DNA from: Thermodesulfovibrionia bacterium
GTDB lineage: Bacteria > Nitrospirota > Thermodesulfovibrionia > UBA6902 > BMS3Bbin08
NCBI GenBank assembly: GCA_030694425.1
Contig: JAUXYI010000063.1
Coordinates: forward strand, 57,150-121,149
Length of the DNA stretch: 64,000 nt
Reading direction: 5' to 3'
The notes under the pieces were generated by a model. It was given only the letters and a program-made list of their open reading frames with translations, had not been told where the DNA came from and did not search any database. This document shows positions 8,231 to 34,765 of the stretch, piece by piece. Every line of letters starts with the position of its first letter. Positions within the stretch are counted from its first letter, which is position 1. Both the position numbers and the translations under genes were made by a program.

Positions 8231-8261
8231 TTGACTTTTTATGAAGCCGATAAGTTATAAT
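8231..8261 (+). promoter_or_regulatory. candidate sigma70 promoter (TTGACT ... TATAAT) driving riboswitch leader
   Basis: Hexamers read from sequence; 19-nt spacer. Confidence 0.4.
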
Positions 8262-8269
8262 CGTTCTGT

Positions 8270-8555
8270 CTTGTTCAGGTGCCCATTTTGGGCTTAAAGG
8301 GGAATCCCGTGAAAGACGGGAGCGGACCCGCCGCTGTAATCCTGATTCCGATTCATTCGGAATAAAAACTTCTATCAGTTAAAGCCACTTTTCCCGATGT
8401 ATCGGGGATGGGAAGGCAGATAGAAATCAGGAGAGCCAGAAGACCAACCTGGACAAAACCTCACATAAAAGCCTTCGTGGTATGAGGTTGTGAAGGTAAA
8501 AGTTATATAGCTTTTATCCCCAGCTTTCATAACGAGGGCTGGGGTTTTTATTTTT
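8270..8555 (+). promoter_or_regulatory. cobalamin (AdoCbl) riboswitch with terminator expression platform
   Basis: AAAGGGGAATCCCGTGAAAGACGGGAGCGGACCCGCCGCTGTAA core, GGGAAGGC, and B12 box AGCCAGAAGACC. Followed by a CCCCAGC...GCTGGGG hairpin plus T-run at 8517-8555. Confidence 0.7.
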
Positions 8556-9134
8556 ATGGCGCATTACATGCATATAAGAGACACTAAAAATATCAAAAAT
8601 GTCACCCTGAACTTGTTTCAGGGTCTAAAAAATGTAGCCGCAAACTTTAGTTTGCGTTTTATTTCGCAGGCTAAAGCCTGCGGCTACACAATTATTATAT
8701 TTTTGTTTCTGCTGTTCACTGTTCACTATTCACTGTTAACCGTCTCTTACGCTGAAACTCCTAACCGTATTATCTCCCTTGCCCGCAGTGTAACGGAGAT
8801 TCTTTTTGCCGCAGGGTTTGGAGATAGAGTCGTGGGCGTAACAAACTTCTGCGACTATCCTCCTGAAGCGAAGCAGAAACCAAAAATCGGGGGCATGTCA
8901 AATCCCTCGCTTGAAGCAGTAGTATCATTAAAACCGGACATCGTTGTATTGACCACTGATGGAAATCCAGAGGAGTTTGAACATAAGCTCCATTCAATGA
9001 AAATAAAAACTCATGTATTCGAAGCAGTTACGCTTCCTGAACTGGCGGATGGTATAAGAAAAATGGGCATTGCCCTTGATGCAAAGGAGAGTTTTAACTC
9101 CCTTGCATCAGGGCGCGGGGCTGTTGCTTCTTGA
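8556..9134 (+). pseudogene. btuF: btuF-like periplasmic B12-binding protein, 3'-truncated remnant
   Basis: Mature-protein homology (ETPNRIISLARSVTEILFAAGFGDRVVGV...) runs about 125 aa and then stops. The reading frame switches at about 9085 into an ABC ATPase C-terminus. Confidence 0.55.
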
Positions 9135-9408
9135 TGAGCCACTTGCAAATCTGGACATAAAATACCAGATAGAACTTCTAAAACTGCTTAAAGAATTGCA
9201 GGAGAAAAGAGAAATAGCGGTTTTGATGGCGCTTCATGATATAAATATTGCCTTGCAGTTTGAAAAGATAATACTAATCAAAGAAGGGAAAGTTCTCAGT
9301 ATTGGTAAGCCTGAAGCGGTGCTGACAGAAGATTTACTTAAGCAGGCATTTGATGTTGTGGTTGAAATTAAAAGACATGACTCAGGAGGAGCGTATATAA
9401 AGTATTAA
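9070..9408 (+). pseudogene. btuD: btuD/fecE-like ABC ATPase, C-terminal fragment only (post-signature, Walker B LLLLDEP, H-loop)
   Basis: Begins right after the ABC signature region. No Walker A and no permease gene. Consistent with a roughly 2 kb deletion fusing btuF to the end of btuD. Confidence 0.55.
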
Positions 9409-9515: not shown

Positions 9516-10037
9516 GTGAGCAGCAAAATTATTTTCATTATAGGCGGGGCGCGAAGCGGAAAAAGTTCATTTGCCTTGAAGGAGGCTTCTAATATTTCAG
9601 GCAAAAAGGCATACATTGCAACTGCAGAGGCGCTTGACAGCGAAATGAAAGGCCGTATTGAGAAGCACAGAAAAGACAGAGGGAATAATTGGGACGTTTA
9701 TGAAGAACCATTAAAAATTTCTGATGTTCTGTCTGATATTAAGACGAAGTACGATGTTGTTGTTATTGATTGTCTGACGCTCTGGCTCTCAAATCTGATG
9801 CATAGTAATAAAGATATAAAAAGTGAAATTGAATCTTTTTGTAGTTCACTGTTCACTGTCCACTGTCCACTGTTCACTGTTTCCAACGAAGTAGGAATGG
9901 GCATTGTACCTGACAACAAACTGGCAAGAGAGTTCAGGGATCTGGCAGGGTTTTTGAACCAAAAAATTGCAGAAATAGCAGATGAAGTGTATGTAGTTAC
10001 AGCAGGGATACCTGTAAAAATTAAAAATGCAAAATGA
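9516..10037 (+). CDS. cobU: adenosylcobinamide kinase / adenosylcobinamide-phosphate guanylyltransferase
   Basis: P-loop GGARSGKS and the CobU family pattern. GTG start. In-frame (GTTCACT)n insertion at 9838-9880. Confidence 0.85.
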   Translation: MSSKIIFIIGGARSGKSSFALKEASNISGKKAYIATAEALDSEMKGRIEKHRKDRGNNWDVYEEPLKISDVLSDIKTKYDVVVIDCLTLWLSNLMHSNKDIKSEIESFCSSLFTVHCPLFTVSNEVGMGIVPDNKLAREFRDLAGFLNQKIAEIADEVYVVTAGIPVKIKNAK

Positions 10038-10190: not shown

Positions 10191-11276
10191 ATGGAACTTA
10201 GTCTGGTTTTAAGGGAGATACCGGCAATAAATGAAAAATTCTATGAGACTGCTCAAAAACGTCTTGACAATTTAACCAAACCGCAGGGAAGTTTGGGAAG
10301 GCTTGAGGAATTTGCAAGGAGAATAGTTGCAATTACTGAAAACCCTCTGCCTGTGCTTGATAAGAAAGCAATTTTTACTTTTGCAGGAGACCACGGAGTT
10401 GCCCAAGAAGGCGTGTCTGCTTTTCCAAAAGAAGTCACCAGGCAGATGGTTCTTAATTTTCTGAATGGAGGAGCAGGAATAAATGTCCTCGCAAGGCATG
10501 GAGGAGCAGATGTTGTAGTGGTGGATATAGGAGTTGATTTTGATTTTGTTAATCCCCCTTCACCCCCCTTTGGTAAAGGGGGGATGGGATTTGTTTCAAA
10601 AAAGGTTGTGATGGGGACAAAAAATATAAGAAAAGGTTCTGCTATGACAAGAAATGAGGCAGAAAGGTGTATAGATGTCGGAATAGAATTAGCAAATGAA
10701 TATGCAGAGAGAGGTTATAAAATTTTTGGCACAGGAGACATGGGTATTGCGAATACAACACCCTCAAGCGCCATAGCAGCAGTGTTTACCGGAAAGTTCG
10801 TTGAGAAGGTTACTGGAAGAGGAACAGGAATAAACGATGACTTATGGATGAACAAGGTTCAGGTTATCAAAGACGCAATATCTATAAATAAACCTGATGT
10901 CTCAGACCCTATTGATGTACTTTCAAAAGTAGGCGGTGCGGAGATAGGCGGTATTGCTGGGTTGATTATAGGTGCTGCAGCAAACAGGATTCCAGTAGTT
11001 ATAGACGGTTTTATATCAACCGCAGGAGCGCTTATAGCGTATGCAATTGAACCAAAGACAAGAGACTATATGTTTGCAGCACATAATTCTCAGGAAATAG
11101 GACACAAGGCAATGCTTGATTACATAGGTCTAAAACCCATACTTGACCTTGAGTTAAGACTCGGCGAAGGGACAGGCGCTGCACTTGCGATGCTGATTAT
11201 TGAGGCAGGGGTAAAGATTTATAAGGAGATGGCAACTTTTGGAGAGGCAGGGGTAGCGACAAAAGATCATAAATAA
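10191..11276 (+). CDS. cobT: nicotinate-nucleotide--dimethylbenzimidazole phosphoribosyltransferase
   Basis: Full-length CobT pattern. In-frame C/G hairpin insertion at 10550-10595 ([12 protein letters not shown]). Confidence 0.9.
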
Positions 11277-11277
11277 G

Positions 11278-11300
11278 AACACAGAGCACAGAACACAGAC
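11278..11300. repeat. (CAGAACA)-type heptamer array, left inverted arm of IVS-protein cassette
   Basis: GAACACAGAGCACAGAACACAGAC. Its reverse complement is present at 11661-11693. Confidence 0.6.
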
Positions 11301-11313
11301 GAAGAGAATTAAA

Positions 11314-11661
11314 ATGCATAATTTTAGAAAACTTAAAATTTATCAAAAGGCAATTAATTTTGCTGTTGAGATATATAGACTTACAAAATCTTTTCCAAAA
11401 GACGAACTTTTTGGATTGACTAATCAACTTAGAAGAGCAGTAACATCTATCTCTTTAAATATTGCGGAGGGGAGTAGGAATAAATCAAGCAAAGAATTTA
11501 GACGATATTTAGAAATCTCTTTAAGATCAACTTATGAAGTAATGACATGTCTTGAGATTGCATTACGATTAAATTATTGCAAAGGGGAGGATTTTAAAAG
11601 ACTGATTGCAGAATCAGATGAAATAGCTGCAATGATAGTAGGTTTTTCTAAACAGCTTTAG
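11314..11661 (+). CDS. four-helix-bundle protein (23S rRNA intervening-sequence protein family)
   Basis: Sequence pattern ...KSFPKDELFGLTNQLRRAVTSISLNIAEG... is typical of the IVS four-helix-bundle family. Flanked by inverted heptamer arrays. Confidence 0.75.
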   Translation: MHNFRKLKIYQKAINFAVEIYRLTKSFPKDELFGLTNQLRRAVTSISLNIAEGSRNKSSKEFRRYLEISLRSTYEVMTCLEIALRLNYCKGEDFKRLIAESDEIAAMIVGFSKQL

Positions 11662-11693
11662 TCTGCATTCTGTATTCTGTGCTCTGTGTTCTG
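11661..11693. repeat. (TGTTCTG)-type heptamer array, right inverted arm of IVS-protein cassette
   Basis: GTCTGCATTCTGTATTCTGTGCTCTGTGTTCTG is the reverse complement of the 11278 arm. Confidence 0.6.
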
Positions 11694-12475
11694 ATGAGAA
11701 AGATTTTACTCGCATTCCAGTTTTTGACAATTATTCCTGTAAAGGAGATGAAAGATGTCTCTGAGAAAGAGATAGGGGGCGCTTCTGCTTTCTTTCCTTT
11801 AATAGGCTGGATTCAGGGGGCTTTATTTGTGGTATCAGCGGTTTTATTCTTAAAGATTTTCCCTCCAGAATTGGTAAATGGACTTCTTATCCTTGTAATT
11901 GTTACAACCAGCGGCGGTCTTCACCTTGACGGGCTTGCAGATACCTTTGATGCAGTTGCCTCAAAAGGAGATAGGGAAAAGAAGCTTTCTGTTATGAAAG
12001 ACAGCACAATCGGCCCTGTAGGTGTAATTGCGATAGTTCTGGCATTGCTTCTTAAATTCCTTGCCTTGAATAGTCTTTTTCACTATTCACTATTCACTAT
12101 TCACTATTTCTGATGCCTGTTTTTTCGCGATGGGTAATGGTTACAGCAATTTTTCACGGTAAATCAGCAAGACAGGACGGCATTGGAAAGATATTTATTG
12201 AAAATACAAAATTAAAGGAATTAGTGATAGCGACCCTGTTAGTTATTGGCTGCTGGTTATTAGTTGTTAGCTTCTTATTGTCTTCACTATTCACTATTCA
12301 CTATTCACTGTTTTTAGTGTCTATACCTGTACTTTACATCTTCAGTCTCGTATCAGTTTGGTTCTGCAATAAAAAATTTGGCGGTATGACAGGAGATACA
12401 TTCGGGGCGGTTTCCGAAATTTCAGAGATATTATTTTTGATAATGGCGGTAATATGCTCACAAGACTTTATTTAA
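11679..12475 (+). pseudogene. cobS: adenosylcobinamide-GDP ribazoletransferase (cobalamin synthase), split by a frameshift inside a (CACTATT)x4 tract at 12081-12108
   Basis: ORFs 11679..12113 and 12113..12475 together cover the full CobS homology (GLHLDGLADT...MKDS.IG then SRW...GGMTGD). The frame changes exactly within the heptamer array. A 5-copy or 2-copy array would restore the frame. Confidence 0.7.
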
Positions 12476-13209
12476 TAAGACACGGGGAAACAGAGGGCGG
12501 ACAACTAAACCGCTATAAAGGGCATATAGACGTGCCTCTTTCTGAGAATGGTATTAAGCAGATGGAACAGTTATCAGAATATATACGACAGAACACAGAA
12601 CATAGAACACAGAACATAGATAACCCCCCCATCCCCCCCTTAAATAAGGGGGGGCAAAGGGGGGTTACATCCGTTTACTGTTCTGATTTAAGCCGTGCTC
12701 TAAAAAGCGCTGAGATTATTGCTAAGCCGCATAAATTAAGGCCTATTGTTATGCCTGAGCTGAGAGAGCGTAATTTCGGCATATGGGAAGGCATGACATT
12801 TAATGAGATAAAGGAAAAATATCCGCAGGAATTTGATGCATGGGTGAGTAATCCTTTAAAATTCAGTCCCGTACAGGGAGAGAGCACTATTGAGGTAAGA
12901 GATAGGGTTTTAACTGCCTTAGATAAGATATTAAATAGTTTTAGGATTCAAGGGGTCAAGGAGTCAAGTGAAAAAATAAAAAATGCACTGGAACCCTCGA
13001 ACCCTCAAACCCTCGAACCCTTTTCTGTTGAAAATGTTGCCATCGTCTCCCACGGTGGAGTAAACAGAGTAATATTATGTCATTTCCTTGAAATACCTTT
13101 TGAGAATATATTCGGGATTGAGCAGGACTTTGGAGCGCTTAATATTGTTGAATTTCATGATAATTATCCGGTGGTGAAACTGATTAATTTTACTTGTCAC
13201 CCTGAGTGA
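12454..13209 (+). CDS. cobC: alpha-ribazole phosphatase (histidine phosphatase family)
   Basis: LYLIRHGETE motif. Two in-frame insertions (12590-12665 and 12985-13025). Confidence 0.8.
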   Translation: MLTRLYLIRHGETEGGQLNRYKGHIDVPLSENGIKQMEQLSEYIRQNTEHRTQNIDNPPIPPLNKGGQRGVTSVYCSDLSRALKSAEIIAKPHKLRPIVMPELRERNFGIWEGMTFNEIKEKYPQEFDAWVSNPLKFSPVQGESTIEVRDRVLTALDKILNSFRIQGVKESSEKIKNALEPSNPQTLEPFSVENVAIVSHGGVNRVILCHFLEIPFENIFGIEQDFGALNIVEFHDNYPVVKLINFTCHPE

Positions 13210-13268: not shown

Positions 13269-14903
13269 ATGGAGGCTTTATTGTCTAAGGCATTAATGAT
13301 ACAGGGAACAGGTTCTGGTGCTGGTAAAAGTGTCATTGTCGCGGGCATATGCAGGATATTCAGAGATATGGGAATTAAAGTAGCACCTTTTAAGGCACAG
13401 AATATGGCGCTGAATTCATTCATTACAAAAGAAGGCGGTGAAATAGGCCGGGCACAGGCATTCCAAGCAGAGGCCGCAGGCATTGAACCTTTTAATGACA
13501 TAAATCCGATATTGCTCAAGGCAACAGGAGAATCTGGATGTCAGGTGATTTTAAACGGCAAGGTTTATGGGAATATGACTGCAATTGATTATTACGCTTT
13601 TAAAGATACAGCTTGGAAGGCAGTCACATCTGCTTATGACAAACTTTCACAAAATTACGATGTTATTGTGATTGAAGGTGCTGGCAGTCCCGCAGAAATT
13701 AATCTGCAGAAAGAAGAAATAGTAAATATGAGTGTAGCACGTTATACAGGCGCGCCTGTTATCCTCGTCGGAGATATTGATAAAGGAGGTGTTTTTGCAT
13801 CTTTTTACGGGACCATAGGCCTACTTGATGGCGATGCTGATTACATAAAGGCATTCATTGTGAACAAATTCAGAGGGGATATAGGAATACTCCGCCCCGG
13901 TCTGAGGATGATAGAAAACAAAACAGGCAGGCCTGTTATAGGCGTGATTAATTATTTTGGAGACCTCGGACTCCATGAGGAAGATGCAATACCAATTGAA
14001 CGGCTTATCCCGAAACGTCGGGATGAACCGTTTAAAGCGATAAAGATTGTAGTTTTGAGATTAAGATATATAGCAAACTTCACAGATTTCGACCCTTTCA
14101 TGTATGAGCCTGGGGTTGAACTTAAATACTCATTAAGGGAAGAGGATATTAACAATGCAGACCTTATCATTATCCCTGGCTCAAAGAATACTGTAAGTGA
14201 TTTATTGTTCTTGAGACAAAATGGTATAGAAGAGTGTGTAAAGTTAGCGGTTAATAAAGGAATCCCCCTTATTGGAATTTGCGGTGGATATCAAATGCTC
14301 GGAAAGAAAATTTTTGATCCTTACAACATAGAAAGCAGTGAGAAAGAAGTAGAAGGCATGGGATTTCTTGATATTGTTACAAGCATTGAAAAGACAAAGA
14401 CTACGTATCAGGTAGAGGCAGAACTTATAAATGGTTCAAAATTGTTTAATGTTGTTCAAGATAGTTCAAACGATGGTTTTAAGAATTTAAAAGGCTACGA
14501 GATCCATATGGGAGTAACTACAGGTGATATTGGTTTATTTAGATTATATAGATACCAGAACACAGGACTCAGAGCACAGAGCACAGAAAATCCCCCCTCA
14601 CCCCCCTTTAACAAAGGGGAGCTGGGGGGATTTGAAGTCCTTGACGGATCAATGAAAGGCAATGTCTGGGGGATTTACATACATGGGCTGTTTGACAATG
14701 ATAGTTTCAGGACTGCGCTGCTTAACTCATTGAGATACAGAAAAGGATTACCGCCTATTAAGGGAACAATCAACTATTTTGAACTCAAAGAAAATGCAAT
14801 AGACAAATGGGCAGATGTTTTAAGAAGCAGTGTTGATATATGTTTTATTTTGAGGCTACTGGATATGGAATATTGCAAGGAGCATCTAATCAGAGGTATT
14901 TAA
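13269..14903 (+). CDS. cobQ: cobyric acid synthase
   Basis: N-terminal ATPase plus C-terminal GATase domain. In-frame insertions at about 13990 and 14555-14640. Confidence 0.9.
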   Translation: MEALLSKALMIQGTGSGAGKSVIVAGICRIFRDMGIKVAPFKAQNMALNSFITKEGGEIGRAQAFQAEAAGIEPFNDINPILLKATGESGCQVILNGKVYGNMTAIDYYAFKDTAWKAVTSAYDKLSQNYDVIVIEGAGSPAEINLQKEEIVNMSVARYTGAPVILVGDIDKGGVFASFYGTIGLLDGDADYIKAFIVNKFRGDIGILRPGLRMIENKTGRPVIGVINYFGDLGLHEEDAIPIERLIPKRRDEPFKAIKIVVLRLRYIANFTDFDPFMYEPGVELKYSLREEDINNADLIIIPGSKNTVSDLLFLRQNGIEECVKLAVNKGIPLIGICGGYQMLGKKIFDPYNIESSEKEVEGMGFLDIVTSIEKTKTTYQVEAELINGSKLFNVVQDSSNDGFKNLKGYEIHMGVTTGDIGLFRLYRYQNTGLRAQSTENPPSPPFNKGELGGFEVLDGSMKGNVWGIYIHGLFDNDSFRTALLNSLRYRKGLPPIKGTINYFELKENAIDKWADVLRSSVDICFILRLLDMEYCKEHLIRGI

Positions 14904-16018
14904 TGATAGAATCAGCCACACTTACATTAGCATATTTCTTAGATCTGGCAATAGGCGACCCGAGATGGCTTCCCCATCCCGTAAGGATTACGGGAAAGGC
15001 TATAACAAAAACTGAAAATTTCTTAAGACGCATAATACAGAATACAAAACACAGAACACAGCCTGCCCCGCTTTGCGGCCTGCCCTGCTTCGCCGAGCGA
15101 GGACAGGGAGCAAGGCCGGGGAACATAGATAACCCCCCAACCCCCCCCATAGCAAAGGGGGGTGAGGGGGGATTTGAAAAACTGGCTGGGATTTTCCTTG
15201 TTTTAATTATAGTAGGATCCACTTATGGATTATTTTTTGTTATTAATTTACTTCTCACTTCTCACTTCTCACTTCTCACTTTTATTTTCCTTGTCTATCT
15301 CATCTCCACTACGCTTGCAACGCATGAGCTTCTGAAATCAGCGCATTCAGTGATTAATGCCTTAAAAGCTGACCATATTGATAATGCAAGAAGAAATCTC
15401 AGTTTCATAGTTGGCAGAGATACTACTCAACTCAGCCGAAAAGACGTATTAAAGGCAACAGTTGAAACCCTTGCTGAAAATGCCTCTGATGGTATAATTG
15501 CCCCTCTTTTTTATTTCTCAATCGGCGGTTTGCCTCTTGCGATGGCGTATAAGGCAATAAACACCCTTGATTCAATGGTTGGATATAAAAATGAAAAATA
15601 TAAAGATTTTGGATGGGCATCAGCACGTCTTGATGACTCCGCAAATTATATACCGGCAAGGATAACAGGAATCCTTATTGTTATTTCATCTGCTATCGTA
15701 TCCCGTTCACTGTTCACTGTTCACTGTTCACTGTCTACAATGCTCCGTGATGGTAGAAATCACTTAAGCCCAAATAGCGGAGTTCCCGAGGCAGCAATGG
15801 CAGGCGCACTCGGCATAAGACTTGGAGGATCATCAAGGTATGGAGGAATAATCGTAGATAAACCATATATTGGGGAGAAAAGACAGATGGATAGAACACA
15901 GAGCACAGACGAAATACATTTAGAAGCTTCTATGAAAGCTGTTACGATTATAAAGGTCACATCTTTTCTTGGATTAGTTAGTGCATTGGCGATTTTATAT
16001 TTGAGGAATAATTTATGA
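14903..16018 (+). CDS. cbiB: adenosylcobinamide-phosphate synthase
   Basis: CbiB/CobD membrane-protein pattern. ATG at 14903 overlaps the cobQ stop (TAATG). Three in-frame insertions. Confidence 0.8.
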   Translation: MIESATLTLAYFLDLAIGDPRWLPHPVRITGKAITKTENFLRRIIQNTKHRTQPAPLCGLPCFAERGQGARPGNIDNPPTPPIAKGGEGGFEKLAGIFLVLIIVGSTYGLFFVINLLLTSHFSLLTFIFLVYLISTTLATHELLKSAHSVINALKADHIDNARRNLSFIVGRDTTQLSRKDVLKATVETLAENASDGIIAPLFYFSIGGLPLAMAYKAINTLDSMVGYKNEKYKDFGWASARLDDSANYIPARITGILIVISSAIVSRSLFTVHCSLSTMLRDGRNHLSPNSGVPEAAMAGALGIRLGGSSRYGGIIVDKPYIGEKRQMDRTQSTDEIHLEASMKAVTIIKVTSFLGLVSALAILYLRNNL

Positions 16019-17271
16019 AAGTACAGAACTCAGAATATAGAATTCAGAATATAGACAAAGCTCCCCTCCCCCTCGCCCCCTCCCGCAAGGGGAGGGGGGT
16101 TAATTTGACACCCTCCCCATTGAAGGGGGAGGGTAAGAGAGGGGGTGATAGTCTGGGTTCTGGGTTCTGTATTCTGAGTTCTGATACAAGTCATGGTGGT
16201 AATATTTACAGGCTTGCAGAGGAACTCGGGTTGCCTGAAAGTAAAATCATTGATTTCAGTGCCTCTATCAATCCCCTCGGTGTTTCAAAAAGAGTGGGGG
16301 ACAAGATTAAAAAAGGGCTGAAAGATTTGTCTCACTATCCAGACCCTGATACCAAAGAATTGAGAGGGAAAATCGCACAATACCATGATATAGAACCAGA
16401 GACGCTACTCTGCGGCAACGGAAGCACCGAATTAATCTATCTTGTACCGAGGGCATTCAAACCTGAAAAGGTTCTTATACCTTCACCTACATTTTCAGAA
16501 TATGAAAGGGCATGCAACTTCAGTAACGAGTTACGAGTTACGAGTTACGAGTTACGGGAAAAAAATAATTTTGATATAAACACAGATACATTTATTCAAA
16601 CTATGGACAAACTTGTCACTCGTCACTCGTCACTTGTCACTGCTGTTATGGCGTTTTTGTGTAATCCGAACAACCCTACAGGAAGGCTTATGAAGAAAGA
16701 AGAAGTATTAAAGATTGCAGAAGCTGCGAAGAAATTAAAATGTCTTTTGATAGTTGATGAGGCTTTTATTGATTTTCATCCAGAGGAATCTGTGATTAAA
16801 GACACTCATGATAATCCTTATTTGATAGTTTTACGGTCAATGACAAAGTTTTATGCACTCACAGGGTTAAGAGTCGGTTATGGGGTCTTCCCCTCTTACC
16901 TCATCAACAAACTAAAAGAATTTAAAGAGCCTTGGACCGTAAATACACTGGCTCAAAAAGCAGCAATGGCAGCACTCGGAGACAATGAATATATAGGTAA
17001 GACCCTCCGGTTAATTAAGAGTGAAAAAGATTTTCTTGAAGGAAGTTTCAGAAAAATAGGTATTGAGTTTTTTCCATCAGATGCCAATTTTTATCTTTTG
17101 AAATTCAATAATGCAAATGAGATAATTCTCTCTCTCCTCAAAAAGGGCATTCTTGTTAGGGATTGCTCAAACTTTAAGGGACTTAATGGGTCATATATCA
17201 GGATTGCAGTCAAATCAAGGGAAGACAATATGCAATTGCTGGAGGAGCTATCTTTATGGCAAAAGGCTTAG
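16015..17271 (+). CDS. cobD: L-threonine-O-3-phosphate decarboxylase (class I/II aminotransferase fold)
   Basis: HGGNIY start motif and PLP-lysine region. The true start may be downstream of the composite repeat. Confidence 0.8.
   Translation: MKVQNSEYRIQNIDKAPLPLAPSRKGRGVNLTPSPLKGEGKRGGDSLGSGFCILSSDTSHGGNIYRLAEELGLPESKIIDFSASINPLGVSKRVGDKIKKGLKDLSHYPDPDTKELRGKIAQYHDIEPETLLCGNGSTELIYLVPRAFKPEKVLIPSPTFSEYERACNFSNELRVTSYELREKNNFDINTDTFIQTMDKLVTRHSSLVTAVMAFLCNPNNPTGRLMKKEEVLKIAEAAKKLKCLLIVDEAFIDFHPEESVIKDTHDNPYLIVLRSMTKFYALTGLRVGYGVFPSYLINKLKEFKEPWTVNTLAQKAAMAALGDNEYIGKTLRLIKSEKDFLEGSFRKIGIEFFPSDANFYLLKFNNANEIILSLLKKGILVRDCSNFKGLNGSYIRIAVKSREDNMQLLEELSLWQKA
16024..16183. mobile_element. composite MITE-like element: inverted (CAGAAYA)n arms flanking two C-rich/G-rich hairpins
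   Basis: Left arm 16024-16056, right arm 16151-16183. Interior is CCCCTCCCCC...GGGGAGGGGGG. Lies in frame at the annotated N-terminus of cobD. Confidence 0.5.
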
Positions 17272-18701: not shown

Positions 18702-19771
18702 TGGATGCAATACTTCTTATAGGACATGGAAGCAGGCTGTCAGAGGCAAACAATGCGCTTAAACAGGTTGCTTCTATGGTGAAAGATTTAGGAAACGTTC
18801 CTTTGGTTGAAACAGCATTTTTACAGTTTGCAAAGCCTGATTTTTTTGAGGCTGTCTCTACATGCGTTTCAAGCGGAGCCAGGAAGATAATTGTACACCC
18901 CTATTTCCTTTATAAAGGGAGGCACTTTGAGGAAGACCTTACTGAAATGGTTGGTAAAGCACGGAAAAGATATTCAGATATTGAGTTTATCCTTACAGAA
19001 CCCCTCGGTGTACACGAAAACATCGCAAAGGTTGTCCTTGAAAGGTCAATGAAAGACATCAAACCAGTGAAAATACTTAAACCGCATGAGATAGAGGAGA
19101 AGAGTTTTGAGATAATCACCAGAGAGATGGGGAAGACAGACTTCAGGGATATTGAGACGCCGATAGTAAAAAGGGTGATACATGCAACGGGAGATTTTGA
19201 CTTTGCCAAAAACATGCGTTTTCACTCTGATGCAGTGGAGGTAGGAATTAAAGCAATAAAAAAGGGAATGGATATTCTGGTGGACGTAAAAATGGTTGAG
19301 GCGGGGATAAACAAGAGATTACTTCAGAAATGGAGAGGGAAAGTCATATGTAAAATTCAGAACACAGAACACAGACTACAGACTACAGATAACCCCCCCA
19401 TCCCACCCTTAAATAAGGGGGGGATGGGGGGGGTTACAGAAAGGGGGGGTGAGGGGGAATTTGAGACCGATACCCAAACGAGAGCGGAACAGGGAATTGA
19501 ATCAGCAGTTAAAGAAAACAATAACATCGGCATTGTTGCAATAGGTAATGCACCTACAGCTCTCTACAGGACAATGAAGTTAATAAGAGATAATGGTTTT
19601 AACCCTGAGCTTGTGGTAGGCGTGCCTGTCGGTTTTGTCAAGGCAGTTGAATCAAAAGAGGTTCTTTTGCATATGGAATATCCTTTTATAACATCACTGG
19701 GAAGAAAGGGTGGAAGTACAGTTGCAGCGGCAATTGTAAATGCATTATTGAAAATAGCGGAAGGGGGGTGA
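18701..19771 (+). CDS. cbiXC: fusion of sirohydrochlorin cobaltochelatase (CbiX small type) with precorrin-8X methylmutase (CbiC)
   Basis: N-terminal 125 aa is CbiX-like (ILLIGHGSR). The remainder is CbiC (HATGDFDF...GNAPTALY). In-frame insertion at 19355-19470. Confidence 0.7.
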   Translation: MDAILLIGHGSRLSEANNALKQVASMVKDLGNVPLVETAFLQFAKPDFFEAVSTCVSSGARKIIVHPYFLYKGRHFEEDLTEMVGKARKRYSDIEFILTEPLGVHENIAKVVLERSMKDIKPVKILKPHEIEEKSFEIITREMGKTDFRDIETPIVKRVIHATGDFDFAKNMRFHSDAVEVGIKAIKKGMDILVDVKMVEAGINKRLLQKWRGKVICKIQNTEHRLQTTDNPPIPPLNKGGMGGVTERGGEGEFETDTQTRAEQGIESAVKENNNIGIVAIGNAPTALYRTMKLIRDNGFNPELVVGVPVGFVKAVESKEVLLHMEYPFITSLGRKGGSTVAAAIVNALLKIAEGG

Positions 19772-19829
19772 TAAATAAAAAGTTCAAAAATGGGAAGTAA
19801 GAAGCAGAAATAAAAAAATCAAGGGAATA

Positions 19830-19980
19830 AAAACGAGGAAAGGGGTGAGAATCCCCTGCTGTCCCGCAGCCGTAAAGGGAACGAAAACCCAACAGAAGTC
19901 ACTGTGCCGAATCTTCGACATGGGAAGACGGGTAAGTAGGCAGCCCTGAGCCGGAAGACCGTTTGTTCCCGCAACCTCGA
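19830..19980 (+). promoter_or_regulatory. cobalamin riboswitch (variant)
   Basis: GTGAGAATCC, CCCGCAGCCGTAAAGGGAA, GTCACTGTGCC, GGGAAGACGG, GCCGGAAGACCG. Upstream of the outer-membrane protein / cbiMNQO block. Confidence 0.55.
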
Positions 19981-19996
19981 CGGAAGGAGAAAAAAA

Positions 19997-22823: not shown

Positions 22824-23788
22824 AAAGAACACAGAACACAGAACACAGACTAAAGACTAAAGATAACCCTCCCATCCCCTCCTTATTTAAGGGGGGGCAA
22901 AGGGGGGTTACCGCAAAGGGAAGTGAGGGGGGATTTAGGAATGCTTTGTCGGTTGAGAAACTCTCATACAAGTACCCTGACGGGACGTCTGCGTTGACTG
23001 ATATTACCTTTAATGTAAGGAAAGGTAAGTTTATCGGACTGCTTGGAGCAAACGGCTCCGGGAAAACAACGCTTCTTCGCGCGATGGATGGACTTATGAA
23101 GAACTTTGAAGGCGGTGTTTATCTGGAAGGGATTGATATAAGAAAGCTCACGCCGAAGCAGATTTACAAAAAGATCGGGCTTGTGTTTCAAAACCCCGAT
23201 GACCAGCTCTTTGCGCCCACTCTCTTTGAGGATGTTGCCTTCGGTCCTTTGAATATGGGTTTTGACGCAGGAGAAGTTAAGAAAAGGGTATTAAATGCCT
23301 TAAATGAAGTTGAGCTTACAGGTCTTGAAAAAAAATCCGTTCACAATCTGAGCTTTGGTCAGAGGAAGCGCGCGTGCATCGCAGGACTTCTTGCGATGGG
23401 ACATGAAATGCTTTTGCTTGATGAACCGACAGCGGGGCTTGACCCGATGGGCGAATACAGGATGATGAAGCTGCTTCAGAAATTGAACAAAGAAAACGGC
23501 GTGACAATTGTCATGGCGACTCACAGCGTGGACCTTGTGCCTCTTTTTCTTGATGAGCTTTACATCCTGAGTAAAGGCAGAATCACAAGAGGCGGCACAC
23601 CGGAGGAGGTGTTTAATGCGCCTGAAGATATGTCAAATGTTAAACTCAGGCTTCCCCACATCGCAGAGCTGATTTATAAACTGAAGCATGAAGATAAACT
23701 GGACTTTGAACGTATTCCCCTCACTATTGGTGAGGCAAGAAGGGAGATCCTGAAAATATATACATACAGAAAAGGTGATGGAAGATGA
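22811..23788 (+). CDS. cbiO: cobalt ECF transporter ATPase
   Basis: Walker A GANGSGKTT, signature LSFGQRKR, Walker B LLLDEP. N-terminal 40 aa derive from a heptamer array plus a C/G hairpin. Confidence 0.85.
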   Translation: MDDLKRTQNTEHRLKTKDNPPIPSLFKGGQRGVTAKGSEGGFRNALSVEKLSYKYPDGTSALTDITFNVRKGKFIGLLGANGSGKTTLLRAMDGLMKNFEGGVYLEGIDIRKLTPKQIYKKIGLVFQNPDDQLFAPTLFEDVAFGPLNMGFDAGEVKKRVLNALNEVELTGLEKKSVHNLSFGQRKRACIAGLLAMGHEMLLLDEPTAGLDPMGEYRMMKLLQKLNKENGVTIVMATHSVDLVPLFLDELYILSKGRITRGGTPEEVFNAPEDMSNVKLRLPHIAELIYKLKHEDKLDFERIPLTIGEARREILKIYTYRKGDGR

Positions 23789-24586: not shown

Positions 24587-25858
24587 GTGAGTATGACTAA
24601 AATTCATGTCATAGGCATTGGCTATAAACCACTTGATAAAGGTGCAAGGGAAGTTATCTTGAATTCATCAGTCATCCTTGCGTCCAACAGGCTTTTTGAA
24701 GTTTTTCAGGGATATAAGGAATATGAAAAAGTGAAAGATAAAGTAAAAGTGATAAACAATGTAGATGAGACAATAAAATTCATTCACTCGTCACTCGTTA
24801 CTCGTCACTCGTCACTCATCACACTTCTTGCCTCCGGAGACCCGCTTTTTTTTGGTATCGGTAGAAGGGCTGTGAGAGAATTTGGAAAAGACATCGTGAA
24901 AATACTGCCTGATCTATCATCTATTCAGATGGCATTTGCAAAGATAAAAGAACCGTGGGATGATGCATTCCTCATGAGCCTTCATGGCGGCCCTGACCCG
25001 ACAAAAAGAAGGAAGCTGAAATATGAACTAAGTGACATTTCTGAACTACTCGCTAAACATAATAAAATTGCTATCCTGACTGACAAAGAAAATAACCCTC
25101 AGAAGATTGCACAGGTTCTTAACTTGTCACTTGTCACTCGTCACTCGTCACTTATTATGTTTGTCTGTGAACGGCTCGGTTATCCTGATGAGAAAATAAC
25201 AGAAGGAACACCTGAGGAAATTACAAAGATAGAGTTTTCAGACCCAAATGTTGTGATAATTCAGAGCACAGAACACAGAACACTTAACACAGACTTAAAA
25301 TTTGGATTAACAGAAAGCGAAATTCTTCATTCTAAGGGACTCATAACAAAGGACGAGGTCAGAGCTGTAACAATTCAAAAATTAAGGCTCCCGCAAAAGG
25401 GCATATTCTGGGATATTGGTGCTGGCTCTGGATCAGTATCAATAGAAGTAGCAAGGCTTTATCCTGAATTAAAAGTTTTTGCCATCGAAAGAGACGAAGA
25501 ACAGGTTAATCATATCAAGGAAAACATGATTAGACGCAACACATCTAATATTGAAATAATAAAAGGTGATGCCCCTGAAACCCTGGCAAATCTTCCACAT
25601 CCGGACAGAGTATTTATAGGAGGAAGCGGTGGAAGGATTAAAGAGATAATAGAATTTGTGAGCAATAAGATATCGTCTGGAGTCATCGTAATAAATGCCA
25701 CTACAATAGAGACACTGAATGGGGCAGTTCAACATCTTGAGAACAATGCATTTAATGTGGGAGTCTCTGAAATTTCTGTTTCCAGAGCAAAAACCGTGGG
25801 TGGCAAAAGACACATGAGTGCTTTAAATCCTGTATTTATTATAACAGGAGAAAGATAG
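24587..25858 (+). CDS. cbiET: precorrin-6Y C5,15-methyltransferase (decarboxylating), CbiE-CbiT fusion
   Basis: N-terminal methylase domain plus C-terminal SAM methyltransferase (DIGAGSGS). Three in-frame insertions. Confidence 0.85.
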   Translation: MSMTKIHVIGIGYKPLDKGAREVILNSSVILASNRLFEVFQGYKEYEKVKDKVKVINNVDETIKFIHSSLVTRHSSLITLLASGDPLFFGIGRRAVREFGKDIVKILPDLSSIQMAFAKIKEPWDDAFLMSLHGGPDPTKRRKLKYELSDISELLAKHNKIAILTDKENNPQKIAQVLNLSLVTRHSSLIMFVCERLGYPDEKITEGTPEEITKIEFSDPNVVIIQSTEHRTLNTDLKFGLTESEILHSKGLITKDEVRAVTIQKLRLPQKGIFWDIGAGSGSVSIEVARLYPELKVFAIERDEEQVNHIKENMIRRNTSNIEIIKGDAPETLANLPHPDRVFIGGSGGRIKEIIEFVSNKISSGVIVINATTIETLNGAVQHLENNAFNVGVSEISVSRAKTVGGKRHMSALNPVFIITGER

Positions 25859-27437: not shown

Positions 27438-29301
27438 AGGCAACAAGACAGAAGTCAGAAGTCAGCCTTCAGCCTTATTTTACATAACAGACAAGGGACT
27501 TATGCTTGCCAAAAAGCTCAAAGAACTTTTCCCTAATTCACAGATGGTGAAATTTAAATCAGAGGCTGTTTCTGAGGTCTGGAGCGAGTGCAAAAATCTA
27601 ATATTCATCATGGCAGCAGGAATTGTTGTCAGGACTATCGCCCCCTTAATAAAAGGCAAAAGGACAGATCCTGCTGTTGTTGTGCTGGACGAGAAAGGGG
27701 AATATGCAATCAGCCTTTTAGGTGGACATCTTGGAGGTGCAAATAAGATTGCAAAGGAGATTGCTGATTTCTTAGGAGGCAGAGCGGTAATAACAACAGC
27801 ATCTGATGTAAATAATCTGCCAGCCATAGATTTATGGGCAAGAGAAAATAATTTAGTGGTAGAAAATTGGGATTTGCTGCCGAAAATTGGTACGCTGCTT
27901 TTAAACAAGGGTTTTTTGAAAGTCTATGCGGATATAGGTATTAAATTGACTGACAAATTACAAAAAACAGACAATCCTGAAACTGCTGACATCCTTATTA
28001 CAAACAAAAACAACCTGTTTGCTCATACACCCATTCATCTTTATTTAAGACCCAAAAATCTTATTATTGGTATTGGCTGTAACAGCGGAACATCAGCAGA
28101 TGAAATAGAAGACGCTGTTAAAAGTATACTGGCGGAAAACAATCTATCATTTCTATCGGTTTACTCCATAGCGACCATTGATAAAAAAAGCAGCGAGCCT
28201 GGTCTGATTGCATTCACTGAAAAGTATGGTTTTAAGGTTAAAACGTTCACATCCGACGAACTGAATAATGTCAAAGGTGTAGTGAAATCAGAAGCTGCAT
28301 TCAAAGCAACTGGAGCCAAAGCAGTAGCAGAGCCAGCAGCATTACTCGCATCAGGAGCAAAGAAACTGCTTGTGCCAAAACAAAGGATAGGAAATGTCAC
28401 GATAGCAATAGCACTCAAAGGCAGTAACGAGTTACAAGTAACAAGTAACAAGTTAAAAAATAAAGGCTCGTCACTCGTCACTCGTCACTCGTCACTTTAC
28501 ATCGTTGGCACTGGCCCGGGAAGCATTGAACATATTACGCCTTATGCCCAAAATGCAATAAGAAACTCCGATGTTATAGTTGGATACGGCACATATCTTG
28601 AACTAATACAGGAGTTAATTAAGGATAAAGAAGTCGTATCCACAGGCATGACGCAGGAGATAGACAGATGTAAAAGAGCAGTGGAACTGGCAATGTCAGG
28701 AAAAACCGTTTCTATCATAAGTGGTGGAGACCCTGGTATCTATGCCATGGCAGGATTGGTGTTTGAAATATTGAAAAACAGTAACGAGTTACAAGTAACA
28801 AGTAACAAGTCAGTAGAGAGTCGGGAGTCAAAAAACTCGTCACTCGTCACTCGTCACTCGTCACTTATTGATGTTGAGGTTATTCCCGGTATTTCTGCCT
28901 TAAATGCCTGTGCAGCAAGGCTCGGTGCGCCACTCATGCATGATTTTGCATGCATAAGTCTTTCTAACAGGCTTACGTCTTGGGATTTGATAGAAAAAAG
29001 ACTTGAGGCCGCTACAACGGCTGATTTTGTGATTGTGCTTTATAACCCAAAGAGCATGGGCAGGCAGGGGCATATCAATAAGGCAAGGGATATCATCTTG
29101 AGATATAGAACTCCTGAAACACCTGTGGGAATAGTAAAGTCTGCAATGAGGGAGAACGAAAAAATAATCATTACAAATCTTAAAGACATGCTTGACCACG
29201 ATATTGATATGCAGAGCACGGTAATTATCGGGAATTCGCAAACATTTTTATGGGAAGGGTGGATGATAACACCGAGGGGATATGCAAACAAAAAACAGTG
29301 A
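27421..29301 (+). CDS. cbiGH: CbiG fused in frame to precorrin-3B C17-methyltransferase CbiH
   Basis: CbiG homology to about aa 340. A repeat insertion at 28425-28500 replaces the cbiH start. Then LYIVGTGPG...GGDPGIY. Confidence 0.8.
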   Translation: MNTENKGNKTEVRSQPSALFYITDKGLMLAKKLKELFPNSQMVKFKSEAVSEVWSECKNLIFIMAAGIVVRTIAPLIKGKRTDPAVVVLDEKGEYAISLLGGHLGGANKIAKEIADFLGGRAVITTASDVNNLPAIDLWARENNLVVENWDLLPKIGTLLLNKGFLKVYADIGIKLTDKLQKTDNPETADILITNKNNLFAHTPIHLYLRPKNLIIGIGCNSGTSADEIEDAVKSILAENNLSFLSVYSIATIDKKSSEPGLIAFTEKYGFKVKTFTSDELNNVKGVVKSEAAFKATGAKAVAEPAALLASGAKKLLVPKQRIGNVTIAIALKGSNELQVTSNKLKNKGSSLVTRHSSLYIVGTGPGSIEHITPYAQNAIRNSDVIVGYGTYLELIQELIKDKEVVSTGMTQEIDRCKRAVELAMSGKTVSIISGGDPGIYAMAGLVFEILKNSNELQVTSNKSVESRESKNSSLVTRHSSLIDVEVIPGISALNACAARLGAPLMHDFACISLSNRLTSWDLIEKRLEAATTADFVIVLYNPKSMGRQGHINKARDIILRYRTPETPVGIVKSAMRENEKIIITNLKDMLDHDIDMQSTVIIGNSQTFLWEGWMITPRGYANKKQ

Positions 29302-30751
29302 CGAGTTACGAGTAACGAGTAACAAGTCAGTAAAGAGTCGGGAGTCAAAAAACTCGTCACTCGTCACTCGTCACTCGTCACTTAAAAATGATGTTGCCTT
29401 TTTGTGGGATGAGTCTCTTCTATGGGGATTAATGGCATATAAGGCATTGAAGTCACGTAACCTGCCTTTTAATATTATTCGTTCTGCTGATATTAAAAAC
29501 AGGCAACTCAAAAATTACAAAATGCTATTTGTCCCTGGTGGATGGGCATCAAATAAGCTAAAGGCTCTCGGTAAAAAGGGCATCACTGAGATAAAAAGAT
29601 TTGTCAGAGGCGGAGGCAATTACCTCGGTCTTTGCGGCGGTGCAGGGCTTGCAACTCAGGAGAGTGTAGGACTCTTAAATGTCAGGAGAAGACCTACAAA
29701 GAACCGCGTCCCGAGCTTCAGCGGGAAGATATATCTAAATATAAGTGAGCATCCTATCTGGAATGGTTTGGTTGGAGGAAACAGCAATGAAAATAGTGCA
29801 AATACGGTAATTCAAAATAACTCATCACTCATCACTCCCCGGCCTCGTCCCGAAGCGTCGGGACGGGGCGGGCATTACTCGTCACTGCCTTTTCATGCCT
29901 GGTGGCCATCGCAATTTTTAGTAGAGGATAAGGGTATAAAGGTACTTGCTATATTTGGAGGCGCCTTACCGGATTCTTTCAGCTCTGACCTAAATATCGG
30001 GGATGTAGAGGCAGATGGCAGTTGGGCTGAACTTGAAAAAATCTATAAGATAAATCTTAATCCTGAAAAACTTATAAACGAGCCTGCTGTTCTGGAAGGC
30101 AGTTATGGACTTGGTAAAGTAATTTTATCACTTATCCATTTTGATACCACTCAGGACAGGAATGGTGCTGAGGTTTTAAAAAATCTATGGGAATATCTCG
30201 CAGGACAGAAGACAGAAGTTAGGAAGATAAGAAATTGGGAAGATAAGAGCCTCTCAACTTCTCAACTTATAGGCTCCAAAACAAACCTGTCACTGCTCAA
30301 GGAACTTGAAATGTTAGTTGATGAGTTGATTTCCCTCGGCGAACGGAATTTCCTCTGGTTCTGGCGAAACCCAATGCTTCTTCAGTGGCGGAGGGGAGTA
30401 AGGGGGCTTGAATACTGCACGCTGTATGTGATGATAAAAGAGATTACCGCAATACTTAAAAATGGACAAGTAGCGAAAGCCAGGGGACAAAGAAACATTG
30501 AATTATTAATTGGAGATAGCTTGGGGAGAATCAGGAGATTGCTTATACCATTTATAGAAAAAACCAAACGCTTACTAATCATGGAAAGGTATGCCTTACA
30601 GAATGGACATATCACCTATGAGAGATGTGATAGTCCAGAGATTCAGAAATTAAGGTGTGAACTTTTCTCCACCTCAAAAAGCCATGGAGGATTGTTCAAA
30701 AAACTTATTGATGAAGTGGACAAAGTTTTGTATAGTTTGTTGATTAACTAA
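29282..30751 (+). CDS. class-I glutamine amidotransferase-like (BPL_N-type) domain protein
   Basis: LFVPGGWASN...GGGNYLGLCGGAGLA. N-terminus sits in a repeat element. Second insertion at 29815-29890. Confidence 0.35.
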   Translation: MQTKNSDELRVTSNKSVKSRESKNSSLVTRHSSLKNDVAFLWDESLLWGLMAYKALKSRNLPFNIIRSADIKNRQLKNYKMLFVPGGWASNKLKALGKKGITEIKRFVRGGGNYLGLCGGAGLATQESVGLLNVRRRPTKNRVPSFSGKIYLNISEHPIWNGLVGGNSNENSANTVIQNNSSLITPRPRPEASGRGGHYSSLPFHAWWPSQFLVEDKGIKVLAIFGGALPDSFSSDLNIGDVEADGSWAELEKIYKINLNPEKLINEPAVLEGSYGLGKVILSLIHFDTTQDRNGAEVLKNLWEYLAGQKTEVRKIRNWEDKSLSTSQLIGSKTNLSLLKELEMLVDELISLGERNFLWFWRNPMLLQWRRGVRGLEYCTLYVMIKEITAILKNGQVAKARGQRNIELLIGDSLGRIRRLLIPFIEKTKRLLIMERYALQNGHITYERCDSPEIQKLRCELFSTSKSHGGLFKKLIDEVDKVLYSLLIN

Positions 30752-32509: not shown

Positions 32510-32563
32510 TTGTAGCCGCAGACTTTAGTCGGCGTTCTTAAACTGTGATTGACAGTTCAAATA

Positions 32564-32778
32564 GGTATTCCAGAGGAATCTCGTGAAAAACGAGAACTGC
32601 CCCGCAACTGTAAAGGGAGCGAAAACCTAAAAAGGCAGTGAAGAGTAAACAGTGAATAGTTAAGAGTTACAGAATTCAAAAACTTTTAACTTTCAACTGC
32701 TTTTAAGTCACTGTCCCGAAGCGTCGGGACGGGAAGGCAGGTGAGTAGAGAGCCCTAAGTCAGGAGATTCCGAATACC
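32564..32778 (+). promoter_or_regulatory. cobalamin riboswitch with no downstream gene (orphan)
   Basis: P1 GGTATTC...GAATACC. GTGAAAAACGAG, CCCCGCAACTGTAAAGGGAGC, GGGAAGGC, AGTCAGGAGA. Next plus-strand product is only a 6-aa ORF. Confidence 0.6.
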
Positions 32779-32868
32779 TTTTAAAAACCAATACCCTTCG
32801 AGGGAAGAGGAGGCAACATGAGAAATAACACATCGTAAAATTAGTCAATCCAAACGCATAGATAAAGT

Positions 32869-32959: not shown

Positions 32960-33343
32960 TTATTGTTTTGAGGAGTATTTCTTAAACCATTCAACGATAT
33001 TTTCCAATGAGACTTTGCATGTAGCCACCTTAATGGTAAATAGCTCAAGTTCGTTCTGTGTGGTTTTGAGATAATAACCATTTATCTGAAGAAAAATACC
33101 TGCAGATGTTATGGCAGTTCTCTTATTCCCATCAATGAAGGGGTGATTTTTTATGAGAGATTCCATCAAGGCAGCAGCTTTATGGCAGATATCGGGATAT
33201 AGATCTTCGCTCCCGAATGTTGCTTTTGGCCTTGAGACAGCAGATTGAAGAAGCCCCAAATCCCTGATGCCGTGAGAGCCGCCTGTTTCATCAATGAGCC
33301 TGCTGTGAATAAAGAGAACCTGCTCTGCAGTAAGGTATCTCAC
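32960..33343 (-). CDS. doc: Fic/Doc family toxin (death-on-curing)
   Basis: HPFIDGNKR motif. Confidence 0.8.
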   Translation of the reverse strand: MRYLTAEQVLFIHSRLIDETGGSHGIRDLGLLQSAVSRPKATFGSEDLYPDICHKAAALMESLIKNHPFIDGNKRTAITSAGIFLQINGYYLKTTQNELELFTIKVATCKVSLENIVEWFKKYSSKQ

Positions 33344-33588
33344 TTCTTTGCGAGTTCTTTGAGCGCCGGTTCGTATTTTGCAATAAAATCATTCACCTGA
33401 GCAACAAATTCCTTATCAATGTTCTTAGGGTATTTCTTCTTTCTCACTGGTTCAATAACTATTCTTGAACTCTTTTCGTCAAGTTTTACGTCAATTTCGG
33501 AACCGACTGACAGATTGAGCTTTTCAAGCACATCAAGCGGGATTGACACCCCTTGACTATTGCCTATAGAACATATCTTTCTATGCAT
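33340..33588 (-). CDS. AbrB/MazE-fold antitoxin (Phd-like partner of Doc)
   Basis: SpoVT/AbrB swapped-hairpin pattern. Overlaps the doc start. Confidence 0.6.
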   Translation of the reverse strand: MHRKICSIGNSQGVSIPLDVLEKLNLSVGSEIDVKLDEKSSRIVIEPVRKKKYPKNIDKEFVAQVNDFIAKYEPALKELAKK

Positions 33589-33604
33589 AATTGCCTCCGT
33601 ACCA

Positions 33605-33745
33605 ATGTTATAACATAATTATAACAGAAAGCAATATTTCCTTTTCCCTTAAACTCCAAGATTCCTTTGTCTCTGAGACTCTATCCGAATCGGACTGACG
33701 GATTGTGGGGCGAATGTGTTTGTTGTCGGGATGAAGCTTAAGGAT
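33605..33745. repeat. toxin-antitoxin island boundary repeat copy 1 (AATCCCTTTGTCT ... GGATTGTGGGGCGRATG family)
   Basis: Read directly. Six copies, all in the same orientation. Confidence 0.4.
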
Positions 33746-33755
33746 GATGTATAGT

Positions 33756-34112
33756 TCAAGGGAGCGGACTAATTCTGATTCTGCCAGGACTGATAACAGC
33801 TACTTTATTTTTGAGTCTGTGGAGTTCTATTTTTTTAAAAGATCCTTTAAAAATATTTGTAATAATCGGAGCTTTGAAATTTGCTGGAACACGAATTAAT
33901 ATTACTCCAAAAGGTGCAGGCCTTAATTTTGGTATGGGGTAATCAAGGTCTCTTGTAACAATAATGCTTTTCTCCTTTGCAGCCTTAGCCCAGAGGATTT
34001 TATCTGAAGACCCTCTAAGATTTGAAGCTGCGACATCAAAAACATCATGTTTTAATGATGAGAGAAATTCTACGATTCCGAATGGCAGGTTTTCGTCAAC
34101 GAGAAACCGCAA
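33756..34112 (-). CDS. DUF5615 (Mut7-C/PIN-like) putative toxin
   Basis: RFLVDENLP start motif. TTG start overlaps the upstream DUF433 gene. Confidence 0.55.
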   Translation of the reverse strand: MRFLVDENLPFGIVEFLSSLKHDVFDVAASNLRGSSDKILWAKAAKEKSIIVTRDLDYPIPKLRPAPFGVILIRVPANFKAPIITNIFKGSFKKIELHRLKNKVAVISPGRIRISPLP

Positions 34113-34329: not shown

Positions 34330-34339
34330 GTTTTAAATC

Positions 34340-34500: not shown

Positions 34501-34516
34501 TGTAGAATGTTAATAA

Positions 34517-34765
<249 letters not shown>

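Follow-up and report, generated by a model that had tools for sequence, protein, structure and literature searches.

Programmed frameshifting and shifty stops are known from dnaX, where the shift is -1, and from prfB, where it is +1. Reading frames also change in simple sequence repeat (SSR) contingency loci, such as the tetra- and heptanucleotide tracts of Haemophilus influenzae and Neisseria (PMC2651432, PMC5084427, PMC3315296). Heptamers form larger repeat families in several bacteria: GGGAATC in Xanthomonas and Nostoc (PMC4692102), TAACTGA in Beggiatoaceae (PMC4679880), and the cyanobacterial STRR repeats of Calothrix and Nostoc (PMC4692102). Such families lie mostly between genes and are scarcer than expected in coding DNA (PMC4692102, PMC4679880). 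The Rickettsia palindromic elements, which are MITE-like repeats, occur as in-frame insertions in protein genes (PMC10969869). No literature on heptamer arrays in Nitrospirota or Thermodesulfovibrionia was found, nor any on the sequencing run SRR13727538.

The locus described here lies in a window of 64,000 nucleotides (the whole stretch of DNA that was analysed) from a 154,504-nt contig of a groundwater Thermodesulfovibrionia MAG. It resembles the SSR contingency loci in that the repeat is inside an ORF, its unit is not a multiple of 3, the loss of a unit shifts the frame, and regaining the unit would restore it. The gene concerned is cobS. CobS, or adenosylcobinamide-GDP ribazoletransferase, joins AdoCbi-GDP and alpha-ribazole in the last step of B12 assembly.

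The cobS split and its operon

Two adjacent ORFs share the whole CobS family profile (PF02654, 207 positions) between them. The upstream ORF, which ends in a TGA at 12111-12113, matches with an E-value of 6.7e-36, and the downstream ORF with an E-value of 6.3e-17 (Table 1). One continuous CobS ORF of about 250-290 aa is absent, the gene being split at this TGA, but CobS is continuous in 39 of 39 aligned homologues. When repaired, the protein is 89-94% identical to 16 annotated homologues. The profile match and the homologues identify the split gene as cobS, with the enzyme function as a prediction. A structure search found no solved CobS structure for comparison. In the NCBI annotation of the contig both halves are labelled separately as "CobS", the C-terminal one being called from the next Met as a 112-aa protein (P0122, 100% identical, same contig).

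The split falls at a perfect period-7 run of 30 nt, TT(CACTATT)x4, at 12079-12108. Both frames are open together only between a TAG at 12071-12073 and the TGA, so the frame must change in the tract or right beside it, where the original prediction had put it when it described CobS homology divided over two ORFs at four heptamers (28 nt). Its copy arithmetic, according to which a gain of one unit or a loss of two would restore a single ORF, agrees with in silico editing: only 2, 5 or 8 units gave one ORF (255, 262 and 269 aa, respectively). The prediction had named the change a +1 frameshift; a frame change is indeed present but its direction is the opposite one, since the DNA is short by 7 nt (1 nt modulo 3) and the downstream frame is therefore -1 (= +2) relative to the upstream frame. 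The predicted ORF start, the mechanically assigned GTG at 11679, also gives way to another: the start of the real gene is most likely the ATG at 11694 (MRKILL...), which is common to all homologues and used in the NCBI protein.

Read in the wrong register, the array gives the N-terminal ORF a tail of ...HYSLFTIHYF before its stop. The first ATG of the C-terminal ORF is Met143 of intact CobS, and U_UUC_UGA stands just upstream. Array 2, which lies 204 nt downstream of array 1, repeats it directly and is conserved in close relatives. In some relatives (proteins P0018-P0020 / locus L013) a 10-residue insert, PGLAQRSGAG, lies inside array 2 (around position 12300 of the window); it resembles the GLPCFAERGQGARPG-type insert in the cbiB gene of the window (15061-15168).

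Table 1. Positions of the cobS halves, repeat arrays, mini-elements and neighbouring features in the window.
Feature	Position	Strand	Description
Cobalamin riboswitch	8260..8466	+	Rfam RF00174, 89.8 bits, E 6.9e-21; heads the segment with cobU-cobT-cobS
btuF/ABC-ATPase remnant	8556-9408		BtuF N-terminal half (profile 9-122 of 266) running into the C-terminal part of a corrinoid/heme-type ABC ATPase (150-253 of 261)
Four-helix-bundle gene	11314-11661		23S rRNA IVP / Avd-like, TIGR02436; lies within 11276-11693
Inverted arrays flanking this gene	11276-11299; 11662-11693		(AGAACAC)n; complement type (TCTGTNT)n
cobS N-terminal ORF	11694..12113	+	139 aa from ATG; Pfam CobS 1-114; exact match to NCBI MDP3297623.1
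Array 1, (CACTATT)x4	12081..12108	+	One unit below the 5-unit, 35-nt state of all relatives
TGATG	12111..12115	+	Stop of the N-terminal ORF, overlapping the native Met143 codon by 1 nt
cobS C-terminal ORF	12113..12475	+	120 aa; Pfam CobS 118-207
Array 2, (CACTATT)x3 + CACTGTT	12285..12312	+	In frame, read as SLFTIHYSLF
Other example arrays	9844-9881; 15250-15281, 15705-15734; 24784-24822; 28467-28496		cobU; cbiB (two); cbiE/T; cbiG/H
CAGAACA-type elements	12588-12669; 14593-14637; 15061-15168; 19358-19438; 22831-22911		cobC; cobQ; cbiB; the last two without a named gene; in L007/L008/L011 at window position 13830
Inverted array pairs, (AGTAACR)n - spacer - (ACTCGTC)n	16515-16648; 28415-28505; 28772-28872; 29290-29390		Long imperfect hairpins as RNA, z = -4.1, -5.3, -1.8, -7.9
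Second riboswitch	19794-19981		Precedes cbiM, cbiQ, cbiO, several methylases, cbiG-cbiH
489-aa ORF	29282-30751		End of the operon; three heptamer arrays
Third cobalamin riboswitch	32513-32788		49.5 bits
Toxin-antitoxin island	32960-37484		Follows the third riboswitch

The cobS gene belongs to a long anaerobic B12 operon on the + strand. The order after the first riboswitch is btuF/ABC-ATPase remnant, cobU, cobT, cobS, cobC, cobQ, cbiB, cobD, cbiA and cbiX-cbiC, and all ORFs of the operon are intact except for cobS and the remnant. Indels between strains in cobT, cobC, cobQ, cbiB and cobD are either multiples of 3 or frame-restoring pairs; judged from these sequences, selection for frame is strong across the operon.

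Several neighbouring features were noted alongside. The deletion remnant directly behind the first B12 riboswitch has lost the permease, half of the ATPase and the remainder of btuF. The four-helix-bundle gene just upstream of cobS looks, together with its array flanks, like a mobile cassette: L006-L010 do not have it between cobT and cobS, and in L008 a homologue is found between cobC and cobQ. The third cobalamin riboswitch has no + strand gene behind it; the homologous sequence in L008 lies upstream of a TonB-dependent receptor gene. The last ORF of the operon, of 489 aa, matches nothing in NCBIfam and in Pfam only BPL_N, weakly.

Heptamer arrays in relatives and across the window

Homologues were searched with the CobS protein repaired to five units. 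The 16 homologues at 89-94% identity are all exactly 262 aa long, which is the length of the five-unit repair. The array is translated into 12 residues of the FHYSLFTIHYSLF type. In the alignment, close homologues show the array peptides HYSLFTFYYSLFLMP, HYSLFTFHYSLFLMP and HYSLFTIHFSLFLMP, and the peptide of P0015, HYSLFTIHYSLFLMP, is exactly what five perfect units encode. More distant CobS proteins of Nitrospirota and Thermodesulfovibrionia have ordinary-looking residues at this place (for example FHSSPITYYSSLFLMP) with a length that stays within one residue; the tract therefore occupies native protein positions and is not an insertion. A contig scan with the repaired CobS was dominated by the heptamer-encoded pattern FTIHYSLF, and loci at 28-41% identity were among the matches listed.

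For close relatives, DNA was obtained from six distinct loci, L006-L011 (L012 is the same contig as L007), found in ENA, JGI, NCBI and Hainich groundwater assemblies. Together with L013 and L014 (GCA_016213945.1), this makes eight relatives with DNA at 70-94% protein identity, and all eight have five units. In L006 all five are perfect CACTATT, and the other five of the six close relatives carry one or two degenerate units each (CACTGTT, CACTTTT, TACTATT). The spacing between invariant anchors is 38 nt in L006-L011 compared to 31 nt in the window. The only length difference between the cobS of the window and that of each of these six relatives is a single uncompensated 7-nt gap. A gapped anchor pattern found three metagenome matches, all with the 38-nt, five-unit spacing. 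Five units are also found in L013, at 84% protein identity (CACTCAT CACCCAT TACTTAT TACTCAT CACTATT), and in L014, at 70% (CACCCGT CACTCGT CACTTAT TACTCGT CACTGTT). Because five degenerate heptamers occupy the same place at both distances, the array is evidently native and constrained in length. In the Thermodesulfovibrionia clade, as far as the available sequences go, the cobS array is old, in frame and always composed of five CACTNNT units. Units 1, 2 and 4 changed in parallel between lineages, from CGT to CAT to ATT, which points to past slippage or conversion within the array at a length held by the reading frame. An intact allele of exactly this strain, with 2, 5 or 8 units, was not found in a collection of 15 billion proteins.

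The tract had been described as an isolated oddity, but it is a conserved part of the gene and one of about 34 heptamer arrays in the ORFs of the region. Between 3.5 and 30 kb there are 34 period-7 arrays that are not AT-rich; all lie inside ORFs and are translated, most read CACTNNT on the coding strand, and they comprise 2.4-5.6 units (positions 3500-30000). With up to 2 mismatches allowed, the window contains the two-unit pattern 12 times, whereas 0.6 occurrences are expected and none of 100 dinucleotide-preserving shuffles had more than 3. Array 1 of cobS is the only one of the 34 that breaks a frame; the approximately 30 similar arrays in the other ORFs of the operon all keep it. For the arrays that could be aligned, in cobU, cbiB (two arrays) and cobD, unit counts agree between the window and relatives, also where the unit sequences differ. 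The arrays are thus not generally length-polymorphic. Heptamer arrays are also present in the relatives L011 and L014. The intergenic arrays upstream of cobS were unusable as a neutral yardstick for slippage, since the intergenic regions of the relatives are non-homologous mosaics. From 31 to 64 kb the window holds only AT-rich intergenic arrays.

Two kinds of mini-elements accompany the arrays. The inverted array pairs, which sit in cobD, in cbiG/H and in the next ORF, are MITE-like elements with heptamer arrays as arms and are read in frame. The other kind, of about 45-108 nt, combines a CAGAACA-type array with a C5-7...G5-7 hairpin (z = -5.9) and is translated as NPPxPPLxKGGxGG. Presence of these CAGAACA-type elements varies between strains, in multiples of 3 (21, 45, 78, 81 and 108 nt).

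Origin and expression of the four-unit array

The part of cobS downstream of the shift bears no sign of decay. Across 104 codons of the C-terminal half, comparison of the window with L010 gave 6 synonymous changes and no nonsynonymous one. The dN/dS downstream of the shift is 0.00-0.24 against the five relatives analysed and does not exceed the values between these intact relatives, 0.09-0.60. The CobS of the window keeps each of the 61 columns that are invariant in a 40-sequence alignment, and alignment with relatives uncovered no second lesion in the gene. The loss of downstream conservation that had been named as one of the signs of a dead gene is therefore not seen, and the frameshift must be very recent, not real, or not inactivating. 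An old, decaying pseudogene is extremely improbable on these grounds. The same transcription unit does contain a second lesion, the btuF N-terminus fused to the ABC ATPase C-terminus, but cobS itself has only the one 7-nt gap, its downstream half shows no relaxed constraint, and cobU, cobT and cobC, whose usefulness depends on cobS, are intact.

If the frameshift were not inactivating, the four-unit allele could still function in one of two ways. CobS might be made in two pieces by termination and reinitiation at UGAUG, or a -1 slip on U_UUC_UGA might join the frames: tRNA-Phe would re-pair on UUU with the stop in the A site, giving ...HYF-LMPVFSRW..., a full-length protein minus two residues. 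In favour of this, the stop codon shares 1 nt with the native Met codon, and a slip on UUUC before the UGA leads precisely into the native frame. The C-terminal half is conserved throughout, and a predicted loop that separates helices 109-126 and 133-157 is close to the break. This loop comes from a low-confidence AlphaFold model of the repaired CobS (mean pLDDT 51.8), of which the secondary structure alone was used and in which the array covers loop 127-132 and the start of helix 133-157. However, every relative reads TTT CTG ATG CCT in frame; TGATG and UUUC therefore belong to the native sequence, and their arrangement here is a by-product of the deletion. There is by sequence no Shine-Dalgarno-like motif upstream of the ATG, and Met143 is inside a predicted helix. 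The codons at 12075-12113 (CTT TTT CAC TAT TCA CTA TTC ACT ATT CAC TAT TTC TGA) contain no X_XXY_YYZ slippery site and only single-tRNA sites (T_TTT, T_TTC). Folded as RNA, 12070-12200 reaches -20 kcal/mol where shuffled sequences average -19.8 (z = -0.07), so the structure there is no more than chance would give. No relative shares the split, all orthologues being in frame. Both routes to residual activity are speculative, and a four-unit allele that works in this way is distinctly improbable. Programmed -1 frameshifting was considered and rejected, there being no slippery heptamer, no downstream structure and no conservation of the shift in orthologues.

The frameshift may also not be real. 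It could have arisen in assembly or consensus calling, or the assembler could have chosen a minority allele; the cells would then possess five units and an intact 262-aa CobS. Such an error would fit the five units in every relative examined and the lack of decay in the downstream half. Independent assembly does not settle the count. Two Logan contigs of the same strain (L001 and L002, run SRR13727538) match the window at 100% identity for 1,958 and 3,201 nt (5,159 in total), but one stops at position 12105 and the other begins at 12079; since both break inside the tract, they do not count its units. A break at a 30-nt run with k=31 suggests that other sequences with the same 30-mers were in the sample. 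These could be a co-occurring longer (five-unit) allele or another CACTATT locus; the break is compatible with either and proves neither, and no single alternative allele was found to account for the two break points together. A periodic run of 37 nt would, in a k=31 graph that is node-centric, permit a shortcut that yields four units. Array-to-array shortcuts or rearrangements do occur in public data: in P0036, a relative with a 194-aa CobS, array 1 runs straight into array 2 with loss of the 68 intervening residues, either by recombination between the direct CACTATT arrays or by a de Bruijn graph shortcut.

Several observations speak against an error. The tract is only 30-37 nt long, far below read length and also shorter than the final k that metagenome assemblers usually reach. 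The same window has about 30 other arrays, several of them 31-39 nt, and many C7/G7 runs in ORFs without frame error. With so many arrays in intact ORFs, miscounting of units was not general in this assembly. The contig is 154.5 kb long and the Logan assembly is identical to it on both sides of the tract. An artefact or minority allele is unlikely, though the least unlikely of the alternatives considered here, and a real deletion is reasonably probable if the case in which the allele keeps some function is counted as well.

The explanation favoured, with slightly better than even confidence, is a very recent one-unit loss by slipped-strand mispairing, a mutational accident and not a selected switch, that left a null or leaky cobS. 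In this clade cobS carries five CACTNNT heptamers (35 nt) where a predicted loop meets a helix, about midway along the membrane protein. In the window the array is perfectly homogeneous but has four units; one unit was probably lost, most probably through slipped-strand mispairing in replication. This would have put the downstream 120 codons in the -1 frame and ended the upstream ORF at the TGA overlapping the Met143 codon. The outcome would be a very young null, or at best leaky, cobS allele in a B12 operon that is otherwise intact and riboswitch-controlled. From these patterns we infer the slippage mechanism, the presence of the deletion in the cells and its functional consequence alike. A further point weighs against this reading: with about 20 intact B12 genes a cobS null should be costly, unless it is very recent, leaky or confined to a subpopulation.

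Among the three options of the original prediction, the young frameshift allele and the assembly slip both stand, and the phase-variable contingency locus is not supported. As a contingency locus, cobS would switch reversibly between four and five units, turning the last B12 step off and on in subpopulations. The repeat is perfect in the window, its unit is not a multiple of 3, and changes in unit number do toggle the frame; with one unit gained, the protein would be identical to P0015 in the array segment. The window with four perfect units and L006 with five could be neighbouring states. That units changed in parallel between lineages implies slippage or conversion in the past, and the Logan contig break is compatible with mixed alleles. 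Against this, repeat number does not vary between strains: the eight DNA loci have five units and the 16 close proteins of 262 aa are uniform. A long uninterrupted tract, as expected under selection for mutability, is lacking as well, with only four to five units that are interrupted in most relatives. Four to five units is short for high switching rates in simple sequence repeats, and in most relatives slippage should be lowered further because the units are point-degenerate. The other coding arrays have identical unit counts between strains, and cobS is a housekeeping biosynthetic gene of metabolism, neither a surface nor a restriction-modification gene. No other out-of-frame CobS was found at the same site. 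A search for stand-alone CobS halves with the C-terminal half alone returned only fragments. One candidate for an independent split, P0130, starts at the same Met, but its contig ends 74 nt away in Illumina adapter sequence; recurrent splitting at Met143 was dropped because this protein is a contig-end truncation. Reversion by unit gain is mechanistically possible, while frequent or selected switching finds no support, and a contingency locus is quite improbable.

A wider version of this idea takes the CACTNNT arrays as lineage-specific coding repeats whose count is fixed by the frame and which are homogenised by loss and gain or by conversion. The four-unit cobS would then be a captured frameshifted intermediate, and the roughly 30 arrays of the operon would act as low-rate reversible switches that produce B12-auxotrophic subpopulations. 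This is rather improbable as a whole. If true, it would place B12-auxotrophic subpopulations in a groundwater community with shared corrinoids.

Comparison with known repeat systems

For annotation, the MAG should not be counted as a complete B12 producer without a read-level check. The cobS lesion, most probably a very recent loss of one unit, is in itself one more repeat-mediated frameshift in a MAG. Its wider context may matter more: dozens of translated heptamer arrays and hairpin mini-elements, with unit counts conserved across deep divergence and units that change in parallel. If the arrays proved length-heterogeneous in reads, they would be a new case of mutational switching in the core metabolism of an environmental bacterium and a model for the survival of tandem repeats inside genes.

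Compared to shifty stops, the split cobS has a Phe codon followed by UGA, and P-site slippage into the correct frame is possible there. It differs from dnaX and prfB in having no canonical slippery heptamer, no stimulatory structure and no conserved shift.

The translated hairpin repeats of 21-108 nt in cobC, cobQ, cbiB, cobT and cbiG/H are similar to Rickettsia palindromic elements, and like them these repeats in the genes neighbouring cobS are variable in presence between strains and come in multiples of 3. The cobS arrays are different. They are solo, direct and without an inverted partner, and they align with ordinary residues of distant CobS proteins and so form no clean insertion.

With the STRR-like families the window shares many tandem 7-nt arrays of related units in both orientations, typically of about 4-5 copies. 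In contrast to those mainly intergenic families, about 34 arrays here are in ORFs and translated, and among relatives down to 70% protein identity the cobS array keeps its place and its number of units.

Finally, the cobS tract departs from the SSR contingency loci in its small number of units (4-5), in a count that is invariant across relatives, in units that are interrupted in most relatives, and in its location in a gene for a biosynthetic enzyme. In mechanism it is an ordinary slipped-strand SSR frameshift, set apart from contingency loci by its uniform copy number among relatives and its short tract.
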